This document shows positions 5,401-19,200 of a DNA stretch of 64,000 nt, one piece after another. The translations under genes and the position numbers were made by a program. Source of the DNA: Lytechinus pictus (Eukaryota); contig NC_087251.1 of NCBI RefSeq assembly GCF_037042905.1, forward strand, positions 26,352,001 to 26,416,000, in the 5' to 3' direction. Position 1 is the stretch's first letter, and each line of letters starts with the position of its first letter. The notes beneath the pieces are model-generated. The model was not told where the DNA came from, searched no databases, and saw only the letters and a program-made list of their open reading frames with translations.

Positions 5401-7732
5401 TGAGATCTACGATCAAATCCTGATAAAGTCTAGAATATGGACCCATCTTTCTTATTGCAAGTAGGATCATTTTGTTCAAAAGGAAAGAAACAACATTTCC
5501 CAAAGGAGAGTGTGCAGAACACAGACTTGTCTAACTTCAGATTCTTTAATGAAAATTAGAAATGATTGGGAGATATGCTGCGTATGGTTACCCCACTGTC
5601 TACCCAATACAAAACCTAGATAGGAATGCAGAATTTAGTAGTCAATGGGTCACGTTTCACAAACCCCATAAAAAAAAGTTTGCAAGGCAGGTTTGAGCTT
5701 CAATATTTCACATATCTGATTGCCTACTAAGAGTGGGTGGTCCCTGAACAAAATCTATAGTAATAATGGTATTGATTAATTACCAGATTTTGCATGATGT
5801 GCTTGAGAATGAAAACGATTGTGTGCATGAATGCATACTGAGAGATGTGTGGTACACGGGTAGAGGAGGGGGTAGGAGTTATTATCAAACATGCACAATG
5901 ACTTATTGCATAAAAGATAAATTTAATACACGGTTTATAGAATTTCATGCGGTGTTTTAGTCCATTGAATACCGACCTCTGTACCCCTCTTTTTTAGTCT
6001 TTGTACAGAGATAGTAAACACATAATTGATAAACCTAGAATTCATGTGGCCAATAACATCCATATGTTCCCAGAGACATAAATCAAATGGCACAGAGCCA
6101 GTCAAACAGGTACCACTCGATTGCTCATACCATTTTAAATTGGAAGATTTGGGGTGATATACTCAACAGAGGTTGAACATCAACCAGGATTTGAGGAGCC
6201 AAATTTTCTATTAAATTTTTTTTTGAGAGCTTGATTAGAATAGGTTTTTAATGAATTATGACATGAGCTGCGCATCAAATACACTACATCAAATACAATT
6301 TTGTGCTTATGTGCTGGTGCATGTATAGATGTATCATTCAAATATTTAACAAGCATGAAGATATAAACAGATACAATTTTGACTATTGTTTCAAGTGATT
6401 CCACTCATTGAAAAGACATTTCACAGAGAATGAAAGGAAGAAGAGCATTTCCTCCAAGAGCAAGATGTGTCCTATGTATCCTTAGCACAAATCTATCGCT
6501 AGAGAGTTGTGTCACTTTAATTTATTGACTACAACTGTACTTAATACTGCAATGCTCATAGGTTTTGTACAGGGACCAATCAGTTCAATAAGCAAAATGA
6601 TTAAAGTTACTCAAACAAAGCAAATCACTTGCCTCCTACAAAACTAGGTGAAGGGAACATTTCAAATTTTGGACAACAGATGGGGTAGTTCAAAATCATC
6701 ATTGCTGCTTTTCTTCAGTATTTCAATCTATGGTGTGTGTGACTCACTCGGGTGAGAGATTTTACTTGTAAATCATTGAAAAATAAGTCCTGATTGCACA
6801 TATTTCACAAAGGCAAAAGAAAAAAAATAGGTTGGCAACAGAAACTACATGTAGGTTATAAGCAATTACCTGTATAGAAGTTCTAGCATTGTACAAATTC
6901 TACATTTAAAGCAGTTCTATTTAAATTAAAAACAGGACATAAAGCTGAAGAGAGTCTAGCTAGAAAGCACACACATATGAAAGCTCTACCAAATTACCCA
7001 TGACAATAATACTCTGTACATACATGTATATTGCCCAGAAGCCAAAGAAGTGTATGAAACCTAATAAAGCTCCACCAAAATACCCATGACAATCGTACTT
7101 TGAAAACATACATTGCACAGAAAACAAAGCAGTATAGAAAATACAAAATACTGAAATCCATATAAGGTGCTTTTGCATGTTCATGAAATGGAAAAAGAAA
7201 TGTGTATTTTAAAAATTAGTTTGAATGATCACATCCACACAAAAGCATGATGTGGCAGATTTCATATTGCCTATTGAAAATCATGTTAAACTTTTCTCTT
7301 TCAATGAAAAATATTTGAAAAGCATGTTCACAGTTCAATAAGGAACATTTTTATATCTACCCATAAACAAACTAACACAAAATCAAATGGGTTGGACCTC
7401 AGTTTAAAGTTTAGATATCTCATTGAAAGTATAAAGGAACACAGTTCTCACAAAGTGAAAATTACCAGTATTTGACACAATGCATGTACTAAAACCTTGC
7501 ACTATTTATGATGTGGCAAAGAGAAGTGCAGAGAGAAAGAAGAGAGAGGGATAGAAAGACAGACAGCAAGAGAAACAGAATAGAAAAAAGTAAATGCCAT
7601 CACATAATGCAATTATGATAATTAAAGTCAAGGAGAGAGCTCTAAAGAGACAGCAACAGCACACAAGGCACATCAAACCAATTTGACACCGTATGAACAG
7701 CTGCCATTACGGATACATTGAATAATACTCAC

Positions 7733-7738
7733 CGGGCA
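7733..7738 (-). CDS. SIPA1L: Candidate 6-nt microexon TGCCCG (adds Val-Pro)
   Basis: cacacAG|TGCCCG|GTGAGTA, preceded by a pyrimidine tract, CACTAAT and TGCATG. Confidence 0.6.
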
Positions 7739-10133
7739 CTGTGTGTTCAGACGTGAGGGATGGAAAGGGGGCAAACAAGTGTAACATGCATTAGTGTACA
7801 CAGGAATATATATATAGAGAGACGACAGCTAGAGGTTGCAATGTACCCCTATATATTCCCATCATCATAACAATTTGATGCAAATGTGTATTAAACCACA
7901 AATACATAAGTGTAATACACATCACTCCCAATAATGGTACATGCCTTTATCTAATATACATGTATGTTTGTATGATAATTTTCTTTCAACCTGTAAAGAT
8001 GCAATTGCAAAAGAGCAACATCGATTCTGCCATTCAACATTTCTACCACTTTTTTCTGAATACCGGCGGTAATAAAACAAGCAAATAGTATTTTCTAAAA
8101 TAGAATATATATTTCACTTAAATCTGAAAGAAAGAGTTTATTGCTGTAAAACATGTATATAACTATTCCACCAATGTAACAATATTTTCAGTATTGCAGT
8201 GAATGAATGAATATGTACTCAACATTTAGAAAATACTCCATATAATGCAATGCACTAGTCATACACTATTAAAAAATACAATGTGGTGACAACACATATT
8301 TGTAACTGCAAATATCTTGCCCCAAATTTAAATTCTTTGTTACAAAAGAAAAAAACAATATAAGTCCTCAACCTTTTATATACATGTATAATTGAGGGGG
8401 GTATAGAGAAAATATATGCAAGAATTTCACAGTATTACAAAAGTTGCTTGAAAAGTTGAATGTTAATAAAAATGAGTCCATGAGTGTTTTGGTGAATTGT
8501 TACAGGAATATGCACAAAAAATTATATTGGCTGTTTAAAATATACAAAAATATAATAAGTGTAAAATATGAACATGATAAAATGGATGGTCAAATTCTAA
8601 AGGGTATCAAAAGCAGGTAAAATGCATTAAAGGGAGAAAGCAAGCATTTGGCTATAATATCAGGAATATCTACACATCTACCATTCATATTCTTGAAATA
8701 TTTTTGAAATGTGTGACAACTCTTAGATATGTGAGCTACATACATGTGGAAATTATTAACAATTTTGCAAAAGGAGTGAATTTTCAAAAATGAATGCAAC
8801 CCCCCCCCCCCTTAAGCCCCAGTCTGAGTACTAAAATTGTTGGAAGCCAAAGATATATTTAAAAATACAAAAATTAGTTTGTTTGTTAGTTTATTTTTCT
8901 TATCATTATTCTGCCTTTTCCTCATGCTTTAATTGCTGAAGAAAATTATTTCAGCTATCAATCCCTCAATGCTTTGTATGATTTGATTGTCAAATAAGCT
9001 GATAAACTAAACATGTACTAACATTTGAGATTTGTGTCAAACTTGGCTATCCATAATTTTAACCACAGTTCAAAATACAGGCCAATATCTTCTGAATAAA
9101 ATGTTGAAAATTAGAATTAGGAATGAAACATGCAGATAAAGGGAAAAGGAGAATGATGCATCGGGGGCCATCTTCTCTAAGAGCAGGGATAAAAGGCGTG
9201 GGGATGTACAAAAAAAGACAGAGGATAAATATAGGCATGATGATGGTAATGTACAATGGTAATCTATGGATGAAGCAGATGAAGGGATGAAAATGTATAT
9301 CATTAGTAAACCATCAATTCAGAACAACTCCAACATGAATATAAAATGAAATTATTCCCACAATGAGAAACATACAAATTCAACTTGTTTGAACTGTAGT
9401 GACATGCATTAAATGCCTAGGAGCGTTAAATAGCAGATTCTCTAAGGGGCTGTTTTATAGAGCTGTAAATATGATACTGAACAAATGCAATACATTTTTG
9501 TGTGATAATTCTTAACCAACATTCAGCTGAAAAATTATCTTTGTAGATTAAAATTCTTATTGTTAATAAACATTTTATTGCACAGTTTATTACTTGTCAA
9601 CATTTGATTGGGTTAAGGAAAATTCTGTACTACATTGCTATCACACCAGGGAAAATTTAGGGTAATTTATTTAGTACAAAAACATGTTTAAATTGTTTGT
9701 AGTCTTGTGGTGGAACTTTATGGAGCATCCCACTACACTATAAATGCACAAATGAAATGAAAAGAAACTTTATAGCATTATCTCTGTTTAATTCATTAGT
9801 AAGCAGATGTAAGGGCTGCAATATAAATTTCAAATATCCAAATATCAATGAAACATGCATGAGTTAAAGAAATGCAAGCAACTATTGTGTTATCCCCAAA
9901 TCACCATGAAAGGAATACAAGGAGGCATGCATTGGTAATTTCTATAAATGAAGGTGTTTTTTCTACCTAAAACTCCTAAAATGAAAGGAAAAAGAAAAAA
10001 GATTATTATTTGGTGAATGTAATAAAAGGATGGTAGCATTCATGATAAAACCACAAATGAAAAACAAGCAAAATGAGATGATGAATGATGCGGGCTTCTA
10101 ATATGATGGTTGCACAAAATGAAGGTGTAATAC

Positions 10134-10247: not shown

Positions 10248-13200
10248 CTACAAGTTCAAAGGTCACAGGAGGATAATATCGAGGAAGGGTAAACATCAAC
10301 GTTTCTTTATAGTGAGGTTTCCAAGTGATATAGTTTATGTTTTACATTCATGAATGAATAAGATGTCGTGAAGATGAACAGAAATTACAATCAGCAATAT
10401 GCAAATGGACACTTAAGGTTTCTTTGAATATGAAAACTTTTTCAGCGAATGTTGGATTTTATCAATCACAGGTGCAATTGAAACAAACCATTAACATCAA
10501 ATACTCCTTGACAAACTTGACTCGACTCTGATTATCAAACTGAGCACTACATTTACGCTTGGAGATGGTATATCACACAATGAACTTAATTCTGGTGATT
10601 TGAAAACCAACTGCTACTAGGATAAAGTTACAATGACTAATGGTTTGAATTCAGCAGTAAGTCTTGATTATATATTTACATATTACGCGGAGCCACAGTC
10701 ACATGCAATATATACAAACAATTTGAAATACAATATAATCAGCTGGTTTTCGACAAGCGCAAATATTTTCATTCCATACTGTTAAAAAATGTTTAATAGT
10801 ATTCTTAAGAGTAGTTTCAAGCTGTTTATAACCTTATAATGAATACTGGCCTGTTTATCTGTTTATAACATTTGTTCACTAATTTTAAAAAGCCCCAAGA
10901 CATCATGCACATATATAGAGCTAAGCTTAAAGGAGAATGAAACCCTTGAAACCAGCTGAATCCATATCAAAGAGAAAAATCAAAGAAACATATTGTTGAA
11001 AGTTTGAGGAAGATTGAATGAATAATAAGAAAGTTATGAGCATTTGAATATTGAGATCACTAGTGCCATGTAGATCCTCCCATCGGCAATGCGACCAAGA
11101 TCTGTGATATCACACACGTACAACTCCCTCATTACTTTAGTACTTATTTAACTTATATTCTCACTTTTATAGAGTCTATCACAAGGTGAGGTGTTCTCTT
11201 TATGAGATGACAAGTACAGAGGTTTCACAACATTATATCATTGATGAATCGTTTGTCATATGATTAGAATGAGCAAAAAGAGCTGTTTTGGGGTATATTT
11301 TCAGTGTCCAAATGGGAGAGTTGTACGTGTGTGACATCACAGATCTTGGTCGCATTGCCAATGGGAGGATCTCCATAGCATTAGTGATCTCGACATTCAA
11401 ATGCTCATAACTCTTTTATTGCTGGTCCTATTTTACTCAAAGTTTTGTTGATCTTATTCTTTGATTTTTCTGCTTTCACAAAAGCTAACTTGCTCCAAGA
11501 GTTTCATTCTCCTTTAAGGTGAACTATCTGGGACCCATTGCATGAGAGTTACTACTATTGTAACTTTGCCATCTGATGGTAACTGCCATGGTAACAATAC
11601 TCAACAGCCAATCAGAATCAAGGATTACATAAAAGAAACCATTGGATAACAAAGTTACCATAATAGTAACTTTTACGCAACGGGACCCTGTAGACTTGTT
11701 ATCTTTCACATCATCATCTCATAACTCACCATGCAACATGGTCTTCTCCGCTTGCATCTTGCTGGGCATGGCTCCGGACTGCGTGCTGGTCACAATGAAC
11801 TCTGACCTGGGTGTTGGATGGGACTGCTTCCTTGACCGGGGGTAGGTGCCCACATGGTTGGGAAGGCTCTCCTCCGAGACGGTCCGGTTCAAAGGAGGCG
11901 ACTGGGAGTTCAGTGTAGGGGTCTTATTCTGTTGTGCATTCTACAGAGTGTGAGATTTAATGAATGAGAGGAGGGGGGGGGGGTGGTGAGGAGAAAGAGT
12001 AAGAACAAGAAAATGTTTGTAAAATAATATATGCATTTTTCTCTGGAAATGATCTTGTAAAAATACAGTCCGATTCATCAAGGGTAGGCATTGCACTTTT
12101 GTTTTCTTTGTATAACGCATGAAACAAGAAATCAATAGATTTCACTTTCACATAATAATAACATAAAAGCATTGATCATACATGCATTCCCAGTATTTTT
12201 TTTTTTTTGGGGGGGGGGTTGTTAATACAACCAACAAGCATCAAGTCTAACACGTCAAATAAAAAAGTAGAATTAAAATTTTCGAATCAGTTGCCAACAC
12301 TGAAGATGAAAAGACAAAATTAATTCTGGTTTGTCAACTACTACTAGAATCAACAAAACTTGGTTAATAAAGATTAGGAATTTTAGTTGTTAATTTTACA
12401 TGTTGAAAACAATCTAATTCTTCTATTGACATGAATAATTTAAGATCACAACATCATGCTACTATAGGGGACAAAATCCAGCCAAGCACTCAGAACAAAA
12501 TCCCAATTAACCAACTCTTCTCTTTATCTCATATCTACAAGTAGAAACACAACCAATTCCTATTTTTTTTTAAATAGAAATATACCCTTTTAAGCTCTAG
12601 AATCTATAATCTAAAAGCATTAGATGATCTGCCAAACCTCATGATGTGGCTTGTTAAATAGAAATATAAAAACCAGCACCAATACAGAGTGCTTTAGAAA
12701 GCAGGTCCCACAAGTACCATTGCAAAGATGTCCAAAATCCCCCTGAATTATAGGGGGAAACAAAGCTGTTGTTCAGGAAAATTAGCATTAGTATGATGCC
12801 ACCGGATGTTCTATTTTGTACTTTTCACTAGTTTTAGCCTCAAATTCAAATGCAGATAAGTTTTTTTAAGGACTTATCTATGAGAATACCTGGGACCCCT
12901 TTTATACACTTTATCAAAAGGATAAACACGCTCTCGGCAAATCGAATGGGAGTATTTCAGAGGCTTGTAAGAGGCAACACCAAATGTCACAAGTTTATAA
13001 AACAGAGTCCACATCTCCAAATGGTGTGATTCTTCTTAAAATTAATCTAAACTTTGAAGTAATAATTTCCTTGCTACTTGCTCATGATTGAGAATGAATG
13101 AGATGTGCATTAATTAGTTTCACTTCATATTTCAATACCAAATATTTTTTTTCATATTGAATTCCAGAGTAGATCATTCACATTGTTGCAAGGGTGTTCA

Positions 13201-16200
13201 AAACCTTGTATTTCCTCTCCTTTTTTTTTAAATCCATCAACTGAAATCCTGTACAAATACAAGGGCAGACAATCCCATTGGAAACAGTTTTATGAAATCT
13301 GCTTTTATTAACTCACCTAAACATTTACCATATAACTGATACAAGGTTTTGTTCCCCAGCATTGACAAGCTCCCTTGGTATGCAAACCCTAAGTGCAATA
13401 TGACTGGAGGGGGGGGGGGGGGGCTAATGGCAGAAAGGATTGGATCAAACATATCCTAAATGCCTGCTTTATGATAAGTTGAAAATCAGGTTGTGTTAAT
13501 TTTCAGATTTGTATTCAATATCAACTTCTTCCGCCATTTAGCCCCTGCTAGCTTTTTAAAGCATCTCAACCATGAAGTTTAGAGTTAAAATTGAAATTGT
13601 TATATTCCATACAGACGGGCATACACATTGGGTGAAATAATCAACTTTGAATTCATAAGGGCAGATCACCCATATGCTCCTTTGATAAAAAAAAATATAT
13701 GCAAACCTTGAATGCACCACGACCCATTACCATGACAACATATATTTTGAGAGAGATATTTACCCCCGTATTAGGCACACGTGAGATGCAGATTTGGAAG
13801 TGCGGAGTTCGGTTAGTAGTAGAAGTAGCAGCCACGATGTGTTCCTCGGAGCCTGCTTCCTGGAGGGAGCCTGGGATGGTTACCATGGTAACAGCAGGGG
13901 CGGAGGTGGAGGTGGGGGACGGGAGGGGGCTGTAGGAGGCGGAGGATGATGATGAGGGGTGGGGTTGATGTGGGCCATCATGGTGGCCGTTTGAGATGAT
14001 TTGGGGGTTGCCGGCCACGTTAATTATAATGGAAGATGTGTGTCGAGAGTCTCCATTCACTCTCTGTGTGGATCGTATAATATATTCATTTCAATTTTTT
14101 ATCAATGTTTTTTTAATGATTTATGCAGATAGTTCAGTGAGGTGACATTTACATTGGTTGAGGGGGATACGAACAATTTTGATAAAGGTGGTCGGAGATC
14201 ATCCAATTTTGTACAAATTTGTGAATTTACAAGTGTTTTTTTTTTTCATCAGGAAATATGTTTTTAAATGTTGTGTGTATTGTATCATAAGAAGAAGAAT
14301 GAGTTCATTGTTGTGAAAGAGCATAGGAAAGGTAATGTCAGTGGTAGATACATGCAGGATCATTCACAATACAAGAATCATACAAAATAAGTATAATAGT
14401 ATCAATGAAGTCATTCAGTTTAGTGATGAAGTAGGAATGAACCAATATACACACGATATGTCATTTGTAAAGAGAGTTGATTAATGAATGAAGGACATAA
14501 CACATGAATTCCATGATCACAAAAGGCATACAATCAACAGTCCAAATTATACAGGTGATGATACATATATTTTTATTATTGGAATGAGCATGAAAATATA
14601 TATATGTACAAATATACAATTCATTCAAGTTTTAACAATATGGAAATGACAAAACATCACAATGGACAATGACATCACAATAAAACAATAGACAGATGTG
14701 GAATGTTTGATGAAGTAAATTACCACAATGTCAACATTCAAGATAAATAAATTATATATGTGTGTGTAAGTGTGTCAAATGATATTATAGGATATTAATT
14801 CATTAAAATAATGTGCAGAGTGAATAATATGTTAGAAATGTTAGTAAAGGAGAAATGATGTGAATTTTGGAGTGAGATCAAATTGAGGAATAGGGGTGAA
14901 GGGGTGTGTTTTAAGGTATGACGGGATAAGGATAAAAGCAAAAAAACAGAAATATATGCCAGAAAGTTAGAAAACATATATCTCTCTCTCTGTTAGATTA
15001 TATCAAATATTAGATACAAACTTATCTACATATCTATAATAGTTCAAACACACTAATGGTACATGTAAAATCAAACAAACAGCATTATTTCCCATTATAG
15101 CAAATGATTAATTCTAAGACTGGTTCTCTATAGATCATAATGTTTATCAAAAGCAATTGAAGGTCACTTAGTCACAAAAAGTCTACTGGAAGTGTTATGA
15201 TACTGAGAATGAAATATAAACATTGGCAAGTACGAGATCAAAATCTTTAATAAAAAAATCTTTAATTTGAAAATACCTATAGATGGTTAACTAATCAATA
15301 GTTGCATTAATTAATCAGTGTGGTTTCTTATAGTATATTTCATTTTTTTTTGTAAAAAAAAGTTAATAAATTGTATCATATGGTATCTATGATAATTGTT
15401 AAATTTATATCAAATCACATACATATGTTTTTGTTTTCTTTCTCAAAAAACAGCACCTTGCATAGCATATATATGACATATTATCCACATCTTACAATAC
15501 ATTTTGCAATCAGTCACTCTTATGAAGCTATTTACAATTAATTCAATACTTCCATTAACAAGATATGAATTCCTAGGTCCAATTTTAGAAGTTACTTTGG
15601 AAGCCTTCATAAATATCTAGTAGGGATGTTCTTATACATTTATCTCAAATACACTTTCATTACAATCTTTACCAAACATTGCTATATTCAGTAAAGTGTA
15701 GTATAGTATAGTATAGTATAGTATAGTATAGTATAGTATAGTATACCACAATATTCATTAGGAAGACTGATTTTGTATTTAAAGAATTATGTACATATTT
15801 TTACATGAGCAGCTTTACATTAAAAAAGTTCAATGATTAGAACATACATATTTGACTTTGTTTATAATTTGGGAATCTTTTCCCCGAGATGACATCCAAA
15901 TGTATTTGAAATTCATTCAAGTTTAACATATTATATAACCAAATTGTATAGAAAGTAATCTCTGATTGGTCCAAGTGTGAATCTTAGGATTTGGCGTTGA
16001 CATCACATTGGGCAATATAACCATGATTTCTTTTTTAATTATCTCTTCTTACTTTAAAAGAAACATAATTATCACTTTTCTTCACCAAGATTATATGAAG
16101 AGGAGTTAAAATTGGAACATGCTTACTATGATTTATCTAAACTACATCACAAAAGCATGCAAGTCAAAACTAGGTTGAATTGGACCACACTTTTATGGAG

Positions 16201-19200
16201 TGCCAATTGGCAACTTATTCACCAAGTATAAATTATTTTGATACTACAGTGAATATTTGCCTTTTTGAATTTCTGTTATGAAATTTGAAAAAAAGATAAA
16301 GACATTATGACCACATTTAATATAAATGAATTATTATTATTTGATACATTATCTTTGTCATGAATATTAAGAAAATAATTGAACTTAGCATTCCATATAA
16401 GCGTGGACTAAAATTCATAAGTATAGAGTTAAACCTGGGTTTAATTCTGAAAATATCATCCCATGGTTTATACAGACAAACAAGATACCAGTACATACTA
16501 TCAAAGCTGACTGAGAGGCATACTTCAATCACTACAGTATCGAGGGTCCATTTAATCAAAGAGTAGTTCTGGCCAAAGGCTCGAAATGTGGAAGAAACAT
16601 TCTCCAAAGGATTGGGAAAAGTTGATTAAAATGCATGATGAATTCATGATGAATTTATGTATGCTGCATGATTCTAAGAATATCCAAAATGATAAGAAAT
16701 TATTACATTGTGAGTCAACTGCAATTTACACAGAAATATATGCACTATGGGACTTAACATTTCAAAGTTTTCTCTATTCAAATTTTGAATGAAAGGGCAT
16801 TTGAACAGTAATTTGCAGGAAACACCAAATGGCACATAGAGAATTGTTTCGATACTGATGGATTGCCAATATTAAGGGTACTAAAATTGGCATAACTATA
16901 CCTCTCGGTCAGCTTTGGTTGCTTCCTTCACCAATATCCCAACTAAACCCATATCATCAATCATTGGATTGGATTCCTACCTCCCTCTCCTGTACAGCAT
17001 TGTAGGCATCGGGGGCCAGGAGCTTCCGAAGGTCATCCTGAACGCGATTGTTTGCCTGAGCCTTGAGGGGCGTGGTCCCACCACTCCTTACGGTGGGCGT
17101 GGTGGCCGAGTTGCCCCGTGACCTGGCAGCAAGGGATTCGTTGGATGACTTGTGACCATCAAGAGGTCTTCTAGAAATAAAAGTTTGAAAATACCTTAAT
17201 TATTAATAGATACAAAGGTGATCACCAGTCGAGTTCAATAATCATATTCCTTTTTTCTTTTCATGTATTCCACAGCAAAGTGTCCAATGAAACAACATCA
17301 TTTTACCTTTTTTACTCTCTCTGTTCCTGAGGAAGTTATCAAATGGAAACAGTTCACCAATGTATTTGTTTTTAAACATCAAAACTAGAGAATAAATTAA
17401 CAGCTGAAATACTGATGAATGTAATTTTACAGTTTGACAGATCAATGCTCCAACAGTGTCTTTGAACAATCACCATTCAAATAATGAATGACTTTTTATC
17501 CACATGGTCTTTAGGTTAAACTCAACAGAATGACACATACCTTCTTGCCATTTTAGGGCTTGTGCTGGACTCACTCATGCTGCTACTGGAAGATGCAGAT
17601 GGTGCTCCGCCTCTCCTGTGTATACTGACATAGTCTCCAGATCCGCCCCGCCTTGGACTCTGTGCCCTCTTACGGACCGTCTCAGGACTCTGTGCAGATC
17701 TCCCTGGCATCGGGCTACGTGCGGGCGACTGTCTGCTTGCTCTGAGGCTACCGTAGTCTCTCGATGCCCCTGTTCCTGAGCCACCAGAGAGGGTGGAGTG
17801 GGTGGAGTGGTCACTGATGTTGCTAGGTGTGGCATGGTGATGTGGTACGATGCCTGCAAGGTGGTTTGGGCGCTGTAGTCTCGGTTGCTCCATGTCAATT
17901 CCCTCCCTGCTTCTTGACTGAAGGGAAGTGAAAAGCAGGCTAACATGAATTTACCAGAATAAGAAATTGTAATACCGGTAGTTGAAATCAAGTAAGGAAA
18001 CCAATTTCACCATATCTTTAAGGCAAAATGTTATAAAGATCTAATTCACTTTTTACCAATTCCCTTGACAGGATGAGGATGTATTTAAGGTCCAAATGCA
18101 TAGTTTGTCTAAAGACATGAAAAACCCGGGGGACTGACTTAGAAGGTGGTAGTAAATCTACTGTAGTTGCTAGACTTTCATTTTGCTCCATCTATTTTAG
18201 CTAGATATACAAGATTAAACCCACCCCTGCATTACTTGACTGACTTTAAAGTAAATTAAACATGCAAAGATTGTCTTTACCTGATATAGCTGTTCCGTTG
18301 GGCTGTAACGCTCAGCCATTGCATAGTTACTCCTATTCTCTTCCTTGGTATCCTGTGAGCCGGGTGCATTGGTCGCTGCTGGGTTGGTACGGTACATGCC
18401 CTCTGGAACGTCCTTGGAGACGGTCACACCATTGTCATGGTAACCATTAGCATCGTCTCCCGTATCATACCACTTCTCGTCGCTGGTGTTGGTTGACAGG
18501 GTGTCTCCACTGCTTGTGTGCTTTATTGTTGCCTGGTGATTTTAAATATTAAAGAAGAAGGATAAATGTTAAGTTGAAATTAACTGAATTGCAGCTATAC
18601 ACATAATGTAAGCTGACAAATTGAAAAATTGGCACGGATTGATATAGGAATGACTTTCACCCGTGATGCACTTATTTCCCCATGATGTAACTTGAGCTAA
18701 CAAGGGAAAAGCTGCACCATGGGAGGAAATATTAAATTAAAAAAAAAAATCCAAACATATGCCTTCTAATGTTGTCAATATGAGAATAGCCCGGAAAATA
18801 AGTTGAGATTTTTCCCTGCATCCTTTAGCTATTTTCCAACTAATCCCTTTTATATCATTATTCGAATGTAGATGATTAAAAAACAAGTGGAATGCCTCTG
18901 GCGGTCTCACCTGCATCACGCGATTCAATATAGCAGCAGTGCTGACTTTGAAAACTACTATAACTCGCACAAGATGTTCAGTGTTACTTGGTTACTCTCA
19001 TGTACACGTTTTATGAACTAGACCAATACACTTACAGAGATATGATGGTAATTCAACAAATACCCCCAACATGGCCAAGTTCATTGACCTTACATGACCT
19101 TTGACCTTGAACATGTGACCTAAAACTCGCACAGGATGTTCAGTGATACTTGATTACTCTTATGTCCAAGTTTCATGAGTCAGATCCATAAACTTTAAAA

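Follow-up and report, generated by a model that had tools for sequence, protein, structure and literature searches.

A Val-Pro-encoding 6-nucleotide microexon of the sea-urchin SIPA1L/SPAR gene is spliced into RNA in Lytechinus pictus

A 64,000-nucleotide (nt) stretch of the Lytechinus pictus genome (NCBI RefSeq assembly GCF_037042905.1, contig NC_087251.1, positions 26,352,001 to 26,416,000) is called the window here. The greater part of a SIPA1L/SPAR RapGAP gene lies inside the window on the minus strand, and its last three exons lie beyond the window start. A 6-nt microexon of this gene is real and is spliced into RNA. The microexon changes His-Gly-Met into His-Val-Pro-Gly-Met just after the SPAR_C helix. 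Judged from the protein models of relatives, it is a conserved alternative cassette of sea-urchin SIPA1L/SPAR. The preferred reading, with a probability of about 0.5, is that the cassette is included in most transcripts of most tissues and that skipping is minor.

The RNA alignment took in five of 11 runs (X1, X5, X9, X10, and X11), with X9 outside the junction-level alignment, and about 6% of each raw run was read. A junction was listed when at least 3 reads from 2 starts supported it. RNA running past the 3′ end of the upstream exon (10134) read the 6-nt exon and then the first 24 nt of the downstream exon. The inclusion junction was supported by 3 reads in run X10 (agreement 1), 7 reads in run X11 (agreement 0.83), and one contig in run X1 (depth 81.9). 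An earlier note on this DNA, made from the letters alone, had named the lack of reads with the insert as grounds for rejecting the exon; such reads and the contig were found. The microexon was joined to both neighbors and bounded by AG/GT, which is the form of a short internal exon (3–27 nt). Inclusion was the sole form listed in all three runs covering the junction, which were bulk RNA from two studies, and no skipped form was listed at this junction in the aligned runs. Run X5 had no coverage of the upstream exon; one of its contigs, from the same organism, matched 7450–8063 with zero differences. At two other alternative junctions of the gene, minor forms of about 30% stayed in run X1 as contigs of their own (depth 36.6–37.6 vs 86.7, and 37.7 vs 79.3), yet this run was unbroken across the microexon junction. 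Therefore, skipping is probably a small minority in this run.

Conservation was judged on protein models and not on the intron DNA of the relatives, and absence from models is not absence from genomes. Val-Pro was present in seven of the eight L. variegatus models, and isoforms X1 and X3 of that species differed by Val-Pro only (pair XP_041468710.1 and XP_041468712.1). Isoforms X1 and X2 of Strongylocentrotus purpuratus (XP_011671099.1 and XP_011671100.1) likewise differed by Val-Pro only. Included and skipped forms thus both exist as model pairs in two sister species, as for an alternative cassette. Two models, S. purpuratus X4 and L. variegatus X6, lack the helix exon yet retain Val-Pro, which shows that an independent exon encodes it; S. 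purpuratus X3 begins from a different first exon. Val-Pro was absent from the Diadema models (8/8), the brittle-star models (3/3), the helix-bearing sea-cucumber models, one crinoid protein, and one hemichordate protein. The frame-preserving Val-Pro insertion after the SPAR_C helix, as proposed in the earlier note, was borne out by the junction reads, the open frame, and the isoform pairs of the sister species. Its remark that gene predictors usually miss such exons held for the models matching this genome, whereas L. variegatus and S. purpuratus models include the exon. The helix exon (10247–10134) is itself skipped in Lytechinus, Strongylocentrotus, Diadema, and Acanthaster models, which is a bigger change than the microexon and one with a wider distribution.

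Membership of the host gene in the SIPA1L/SPAR family was indicated by a RapGAP dimerization domain, a RapGAP domain, SPAR_C, and a C-terminal coiled coil. In the Pfam search of the window gene, the RapGAP dimerization domain was found and SPAR_C was slightly below its cut-off. The first coding exon was 98% identical to the L. variegatus SIPA1L protein. A 30-exon model with the microexon had AG/GT at all introns and encoded 2030 amino acids with no internal stop, and its product shares 2000 identical residues with L. variegatus isoform X1 over the 2032 positions of the latter. The microexon is exon 27 of this model, in phase 1, and sits inside a 19.4-kilobase (kb) intron; the introns beside it are 2,395 nt (upstream) and 17,048 nt (downstream) long. 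Four L. pictus models (P0125, P0130, P0131, and P0181) run into the intron and so lack the microexon, and the tail of one read-through model of this species is identical to the read-through frame of the window. The downstream exons form a separate gene in the L. pictus models (P0176 and P0179). An alternative first coding exon within the 17-kb intron, just beyond window position 1, is modelled in L. pictus and S. purpuratus (P0176, P0178, and P0179). The isoform from this intronic first exon is short and consists of the C-terminal coiled-coil part only, without RapGAP, helix, or microexon.

The splice-site layout of the microexon was compared with the 28 other acceptors of the same gene. The acceptor-side elements of the earlier note (CACTAAT, TGCATG, TGC in the tract, the 88-nt AG-free zone, and cacAG) and the consensus donor were all found at their places on the minus strand (Table 1). 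An AG-free zone of at least 88 nt was present at 4 of the 28 other acceptors (median 53.5), TGC within 60 nt at 14, CTRAY within 100 nt at 10, and GCATG within 100 nt at one. The pyrimidine fraction of the microexon acceptor was 0.84 at −40 to −15, a value attained by 1/28 other acceptors, and 0.55 closer in. The T fraction near its AG was 0.18, and one of the 28 was as low. The downstream flank had been described as UG/YGCY-rich. It was UG-rich, with 15 TG in 100 nt (reached by 1.2% of windows), but YGCY was only mildly raised (3; 5% of windows). Taken singly, the long AG-free zone, TGC, and CTRAY are weak; the displaced tract, the upstream GCATG, and the UG-rich downstream flank were more distinctive. 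RNA folding of the acceptor region was ordinary compared with shuffles (z −0.12), and a structural switch in the acceptor RNA was not proposed. A second AG-free zone, 136 nt long and containing a strong pyrimidine tract, lies directly downstream of the microexon (window 7639–7466, minus) and ends at AG 7503–7502. A candidate exon of 36 nt comes next; it preserves the frame and has a weaker donor, and no read support was listed for it.

A composite pattern was also searched, consisting of YAG, 3–27 nt in threes, GTRAGT, and an AG-free zone of at least 60 nt with CTRAY. It matched once in 79,452 sense-strand intron bases, at the microexon, and not at all in the antisense strand. In 60 Markov simulations the mean was 0.05, with a match in 2 of the 60. 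Because the pattern and its thresholds were chosen after the feature had been seen, the statistic supports only loosely that the feature is not chance, and the reads carry the proof.

Exons targeted by eMIC are characterised by a long AG exclusion zone, a strong branch point, and UGC near the acceptor (10.1101/2021.02.24.432780). In neural microexons, the pyrimidine peak lies 15–30 nt out and the branch point at about 45 nt (PMC12871342). The microexon has the long AG-free zone, distant predicted branch point, displaced tract, and strong donor of the eMIC-type layout. TGC was found upstream at 7790 and 7773, which are −52 and −35 from the exon start, and none was found between −32 and the AG, that is, in the final 32 nt before the microexon. 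UGC is thus present between the predicted branch point and the AG, which is weak evidence given the 14 other acceptors with TGC nearby. The nearest UGC, at −35, is on the 5′ side of the pyrimidine tract and not between the tract and the AG, the optimal position among those tested (10.1101/2024.09.17.613571). TCTCTC occurs at −84, ahead of the UGC.

RBFOX enhances inclusion from the downstream side of alternative microexons, where TGCATG is enriched (PMC4317164). The TGCATG taken in the earlier note for an RBFOX site is present, at 7790–7785, but it is upstream, whereas the reported enrichment for alternative microexons is downstream (PMC4317164). On the downstream side of the microexon no TGCATG was found within 1.78 kb, and the nearest GCATG is at +1782. 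Upstream RBFOX sites tend toward repression. An Srrm2/3/4 locus was found at G000:C2:22732241-22758600. It has a cwf21 match, and an SRRM_C exon follows 17 kb further down this strand. The SRRM_C exon was above the Pfam cut-off (E 3.4e-7) and was followed by a plausible next exon. The family search with SRRM_C alone gave weak matches only, and the locus was fixed by cwf21 and a direct Pfam scan. These matches suggest that an eMIC-type regulator is likely encoded in the genome. No sipa1 row was found in the supplements of the Esrp paper, a weak negative since sea-urchin genes may be listed there by id.

The following mechanism is proposed. Because the exon is too short for ordinary exon definition, its recognition would depend on the consensus donor, the set-back branch point and tract, and a putative UG-rich downstream enhancer. 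The branch point and pyrimidine tract would act from 15–55 nt back from an uncontested AG. RBFOX at the hexamer abutting the branch point would reduce, not increase, inclusion. In an AlphaFold2 model of the C-terminal 252 residues of the S. purpuratus protein, a helix spans 95–104, Val-Pro (107–108) is in low-confidence coil, and a confident long helix or coiled coil spans 188–246. On this model, Val-Pro would cap and end the SPAR_C helix and lengthen by two residues the disordered linker that lies about 80 residues before the C-terminal coiled coil. In vertebrate SIPA1L1, the coiled coil binds LZTS proteins (10.1101/2021.02.12.430872). As a guess, the effect of Val-Pro would be a fine-tuning of partner binding, with the RapGAP domain unchanged. 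The helix motif was also considered as the SIPA1L2 LC3-binding motif and was dropped, as the published motif lies in the RapGAP domain (10.1101/556266).

Several observations weigh against a cassette that is included in most transcripts of most tissues. There are only 10 junction reads, a skipped form with fewer than 3 reads would go unlisted, and the agreement of 0.83 in run X11 would allow one or two reads to come from a different form. High inclusion could reflect nerve-rich samples or mainly neuronal expression of the gene. The share of models with Val-Pro reflects model building and is not a measure of inclusion, and the AlphaFold2 model was weak overall (mean pLDDT 57.6). In addition, an Srrm2/3/4 gene with eMIC-type exons is present in the genome, the acceptor layout fits reported neural or alternative microexons and not constitutive ones (PMC12871342, PMC4317164), and UGC is not strictly required for the SRRM4 response (10.1101/2024.09.17.613571). 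It is possible, though less likely than broad inclusion, that the microexon is a neural one turned on in neurons by the eMIC isoform of Srrm2/3/4, its high inclusion then following from neural expression or nerve-rich samples. The exon is 6 nt long and keeps the frame, and its AG-free zone, predicted branch point near −53, displaced tract, and consensus donor are as for eMIC targets (10.1101/2021.02.24.432780; PMC12871342). UGC between the branch point and the AG, TCTCTC ahead of it, the eMIC-type exons in the genome, and the action of vertebrate SIPA1L proteins in neurons (10.1101/2021.02.12.430872) are consistent with such control. It is opposed by the dominance of inclusion in three runs from two studies and by the lack of UGC between the tract and the AG. 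Furthermore, no sipa gene was found among the 708 zebrafish neural exons in supplement 6 of PMC12626424, although the control itsn1 was found there.

The skipped form could also be the splicing noise of a hard-to-recognise, near-constitutive microexon that was fixed in camarodont urchins and has no regulating factor. The aligned runs list no skipped form, and each species has one skipped model among those with the helix exon, as this explanation would have it. It is nevertheless unlikely, as the skipped form is modelled in two genera, and the T-poor acceptor near the AG and the long flanking introns (2.4 and 17 kb) are unlike those of constitutive microexons (PMC4317164). It is most improbable that there is no separate exon and that the six letters stem from an allele, from alternative splice-site use at a flanking exon, or from a mapping artefact. 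A 6-nt piece cannot align alone, and the evidence consists of the letters of loose read ends. However, these letters neither follow the upstream exon nor precede the downstream exon in the genome. Only one hexamer of the 19.4-kb intron is bounded by AG/GT and has a full consensus donor, and its letters are these six. Models of two other species contain this dipeptide too, including models that skip the upstream exon. The artefact reading was refuted by the junction reads, the uniqueness of the intron hexamer, and the sister-species models.

Length variants at the same junction were found in protein models of other deuterostomes. In the teleosts Sinocyclocheilus (P0029 vs P0028) and Misgurnus (P0014 vs P0230), the SIPA1L1 isoforms of a pair differ by 7 residues directly after the SPAR_C helix. 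Since read-through models suggest a second donor, these variants probably arise from an alternative donor rather than a separate exon, and a reading of them as microexons was dropped. One eel SIPA1L2-type model has 11 extra residues compared with other fish at the junction after the SPAR_C helix. Sea-star models have 2 extra residues compared with the brittle star and hemichordate, in all three models with the helix. Repeated gains of tissue-specific exons by the same genes have been published (10.64898/2026.09.05.749416). A speculative and rather doubtful extension is that this junction is a deuterostome hotspot of separately gained length switches (urchin Val-Pro, sea star, teleost, and eel), a comparison of protein models and not of the DNA of the other lineages' variants. 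The urchin exon would then be a cell-type switch, turned on by eMIC in neurons or off by RBFOX blocking the branch point, that changes helix binding.

Table 1. Features of the microexon and neighboring exons of the SIPA1L/SPAR gene (window positions unless a contig is given)
Feature	Position	Strand	Basis or remark
6-nt phase-1 cassette microexon TGCCCG	7733..7738	-	Junction reads and contig; Val-Pro isoform pairs in two sister species; open spliced frame
3′ splice site AG (cacAG)	7739..7740	-	T-poor over last 15 nt
5′ splice site GTGAGTA, consensus	7726..7732	-	Opens 17,048-nt intron
AG-free zone, 88 nt	7741..7828	-	Counted in sequence
Pyrimidine tract set back from AG, TGC at 7773	7753..7778	-	Base composition
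Predicted branch-point sequence CACTAAT, branch A about −53	7790..7796	-	Consensus inference
TGCATG, RBFOX-type hexamer (candidate site) abutting predicted branch point	7785..7790	-	Sequence; background 0.63 per kb
UG-rich downstream flank, candidate enhancer	7633..7725	-	Composition
Upstream 114-nt exon, codes conserved SPAR_C helix	10134..10247	-	Skipped in some relatives' models
Preceding exon	11730..11940	-	Spliced directly to microexon in L. variegatus X6 and S. purpuratus X4 models
Downstream exon, outside window	G000:C7:26342684-26342492		Reached after 17,048-nt intron

Other splicing features were observed in the window. A 916-nt AG-free stretch of the sense strand (window 14981–14066, minus) lies upstream of a 300-nt alternative exon at 14063–13764; skipping of this exon was seen in reads and in the L. 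variegatus models X7 and X8. The next longest AG-free run in the gene span was 245 nt, and the longest antisense run was 178 nt. The 916-nt stretch points to a branch point lying very far from the acceptor or to strong selection against AG. Tandem acceptors at window 17170 and 17167 add or drop one Arg, in reads and in Lytechinus and Diadema models. Short alternative exons were found at window 30468–30427 (42 nt) and 22461–22411 (51 nt). Models of urchins, a sea star, and a sea cucumber skip the 42-nt exon, whose acceptor also has a displaced pyrimidine tract. High-copy repeats at about 10927–11517, 18880–19000, and 1350–1800 of the window attract hundreds of foreign RNA reads.

A search of the available literature found no paper on this exon, nor on microexons for this gene or genus; tables of the VastDB type for S. 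purpuratus may list it. Two related urchins already have the isoform among their public gene models. Tissue inclusion values for the exon may be in the data of 10.64898/2026.09.05.749416, which cover S. purpuratus tissues. The exon repairs a broken gene model, as the models matching this genome cut the gene at this intron and miss the exon. The 6-nt microexon is confirmed and conserved, and it belongs to an echinoderm with a tractable embryo, a setting for which descriptions of single microexons seem to be few. Control of tiny exons in sea urchins by the eMIC programme or by RBFOX could conveniently be tested on it. GTPase regulators are already known to contain microexons, and this one is an ordinary member of that class.

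Compared with known systems, the teleost SIPA1L1 length variants share the junction right after the same helix, but their length and sequence differ, and on present evidence they are not homologous exons. RBFOX-enhanced alternative microexons (PMC4317164) are alike in being alternative microexons with TGCATG in the flank; the urchin TGCATG, unlike theirs, is upstream against the predicted branch point, with none within 1.78 kb downstream. The eMIC (SRRM3/4, Srrm234)-dependent neural microexons differ from the urchin exon in UGC position, which in the urchin is −35 on the 5′ side of the tract, and in its high inclusion in bulk RNA. They resemble it in size, frame, AG-free zone, distant predicted branch point, displaced tract, strong donor, and UGC between branch point and AG, and the regulator gene is in the genome. 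Unlike in the sister species, the models matching this genome read through into the intron, and the downstream exons are split off as a separate gene. The Val-Pro isoforms of L. variegatus and S. purpuratus have the same gene, the same junction, and the same Val-Pro insertion, with both forms modelled.

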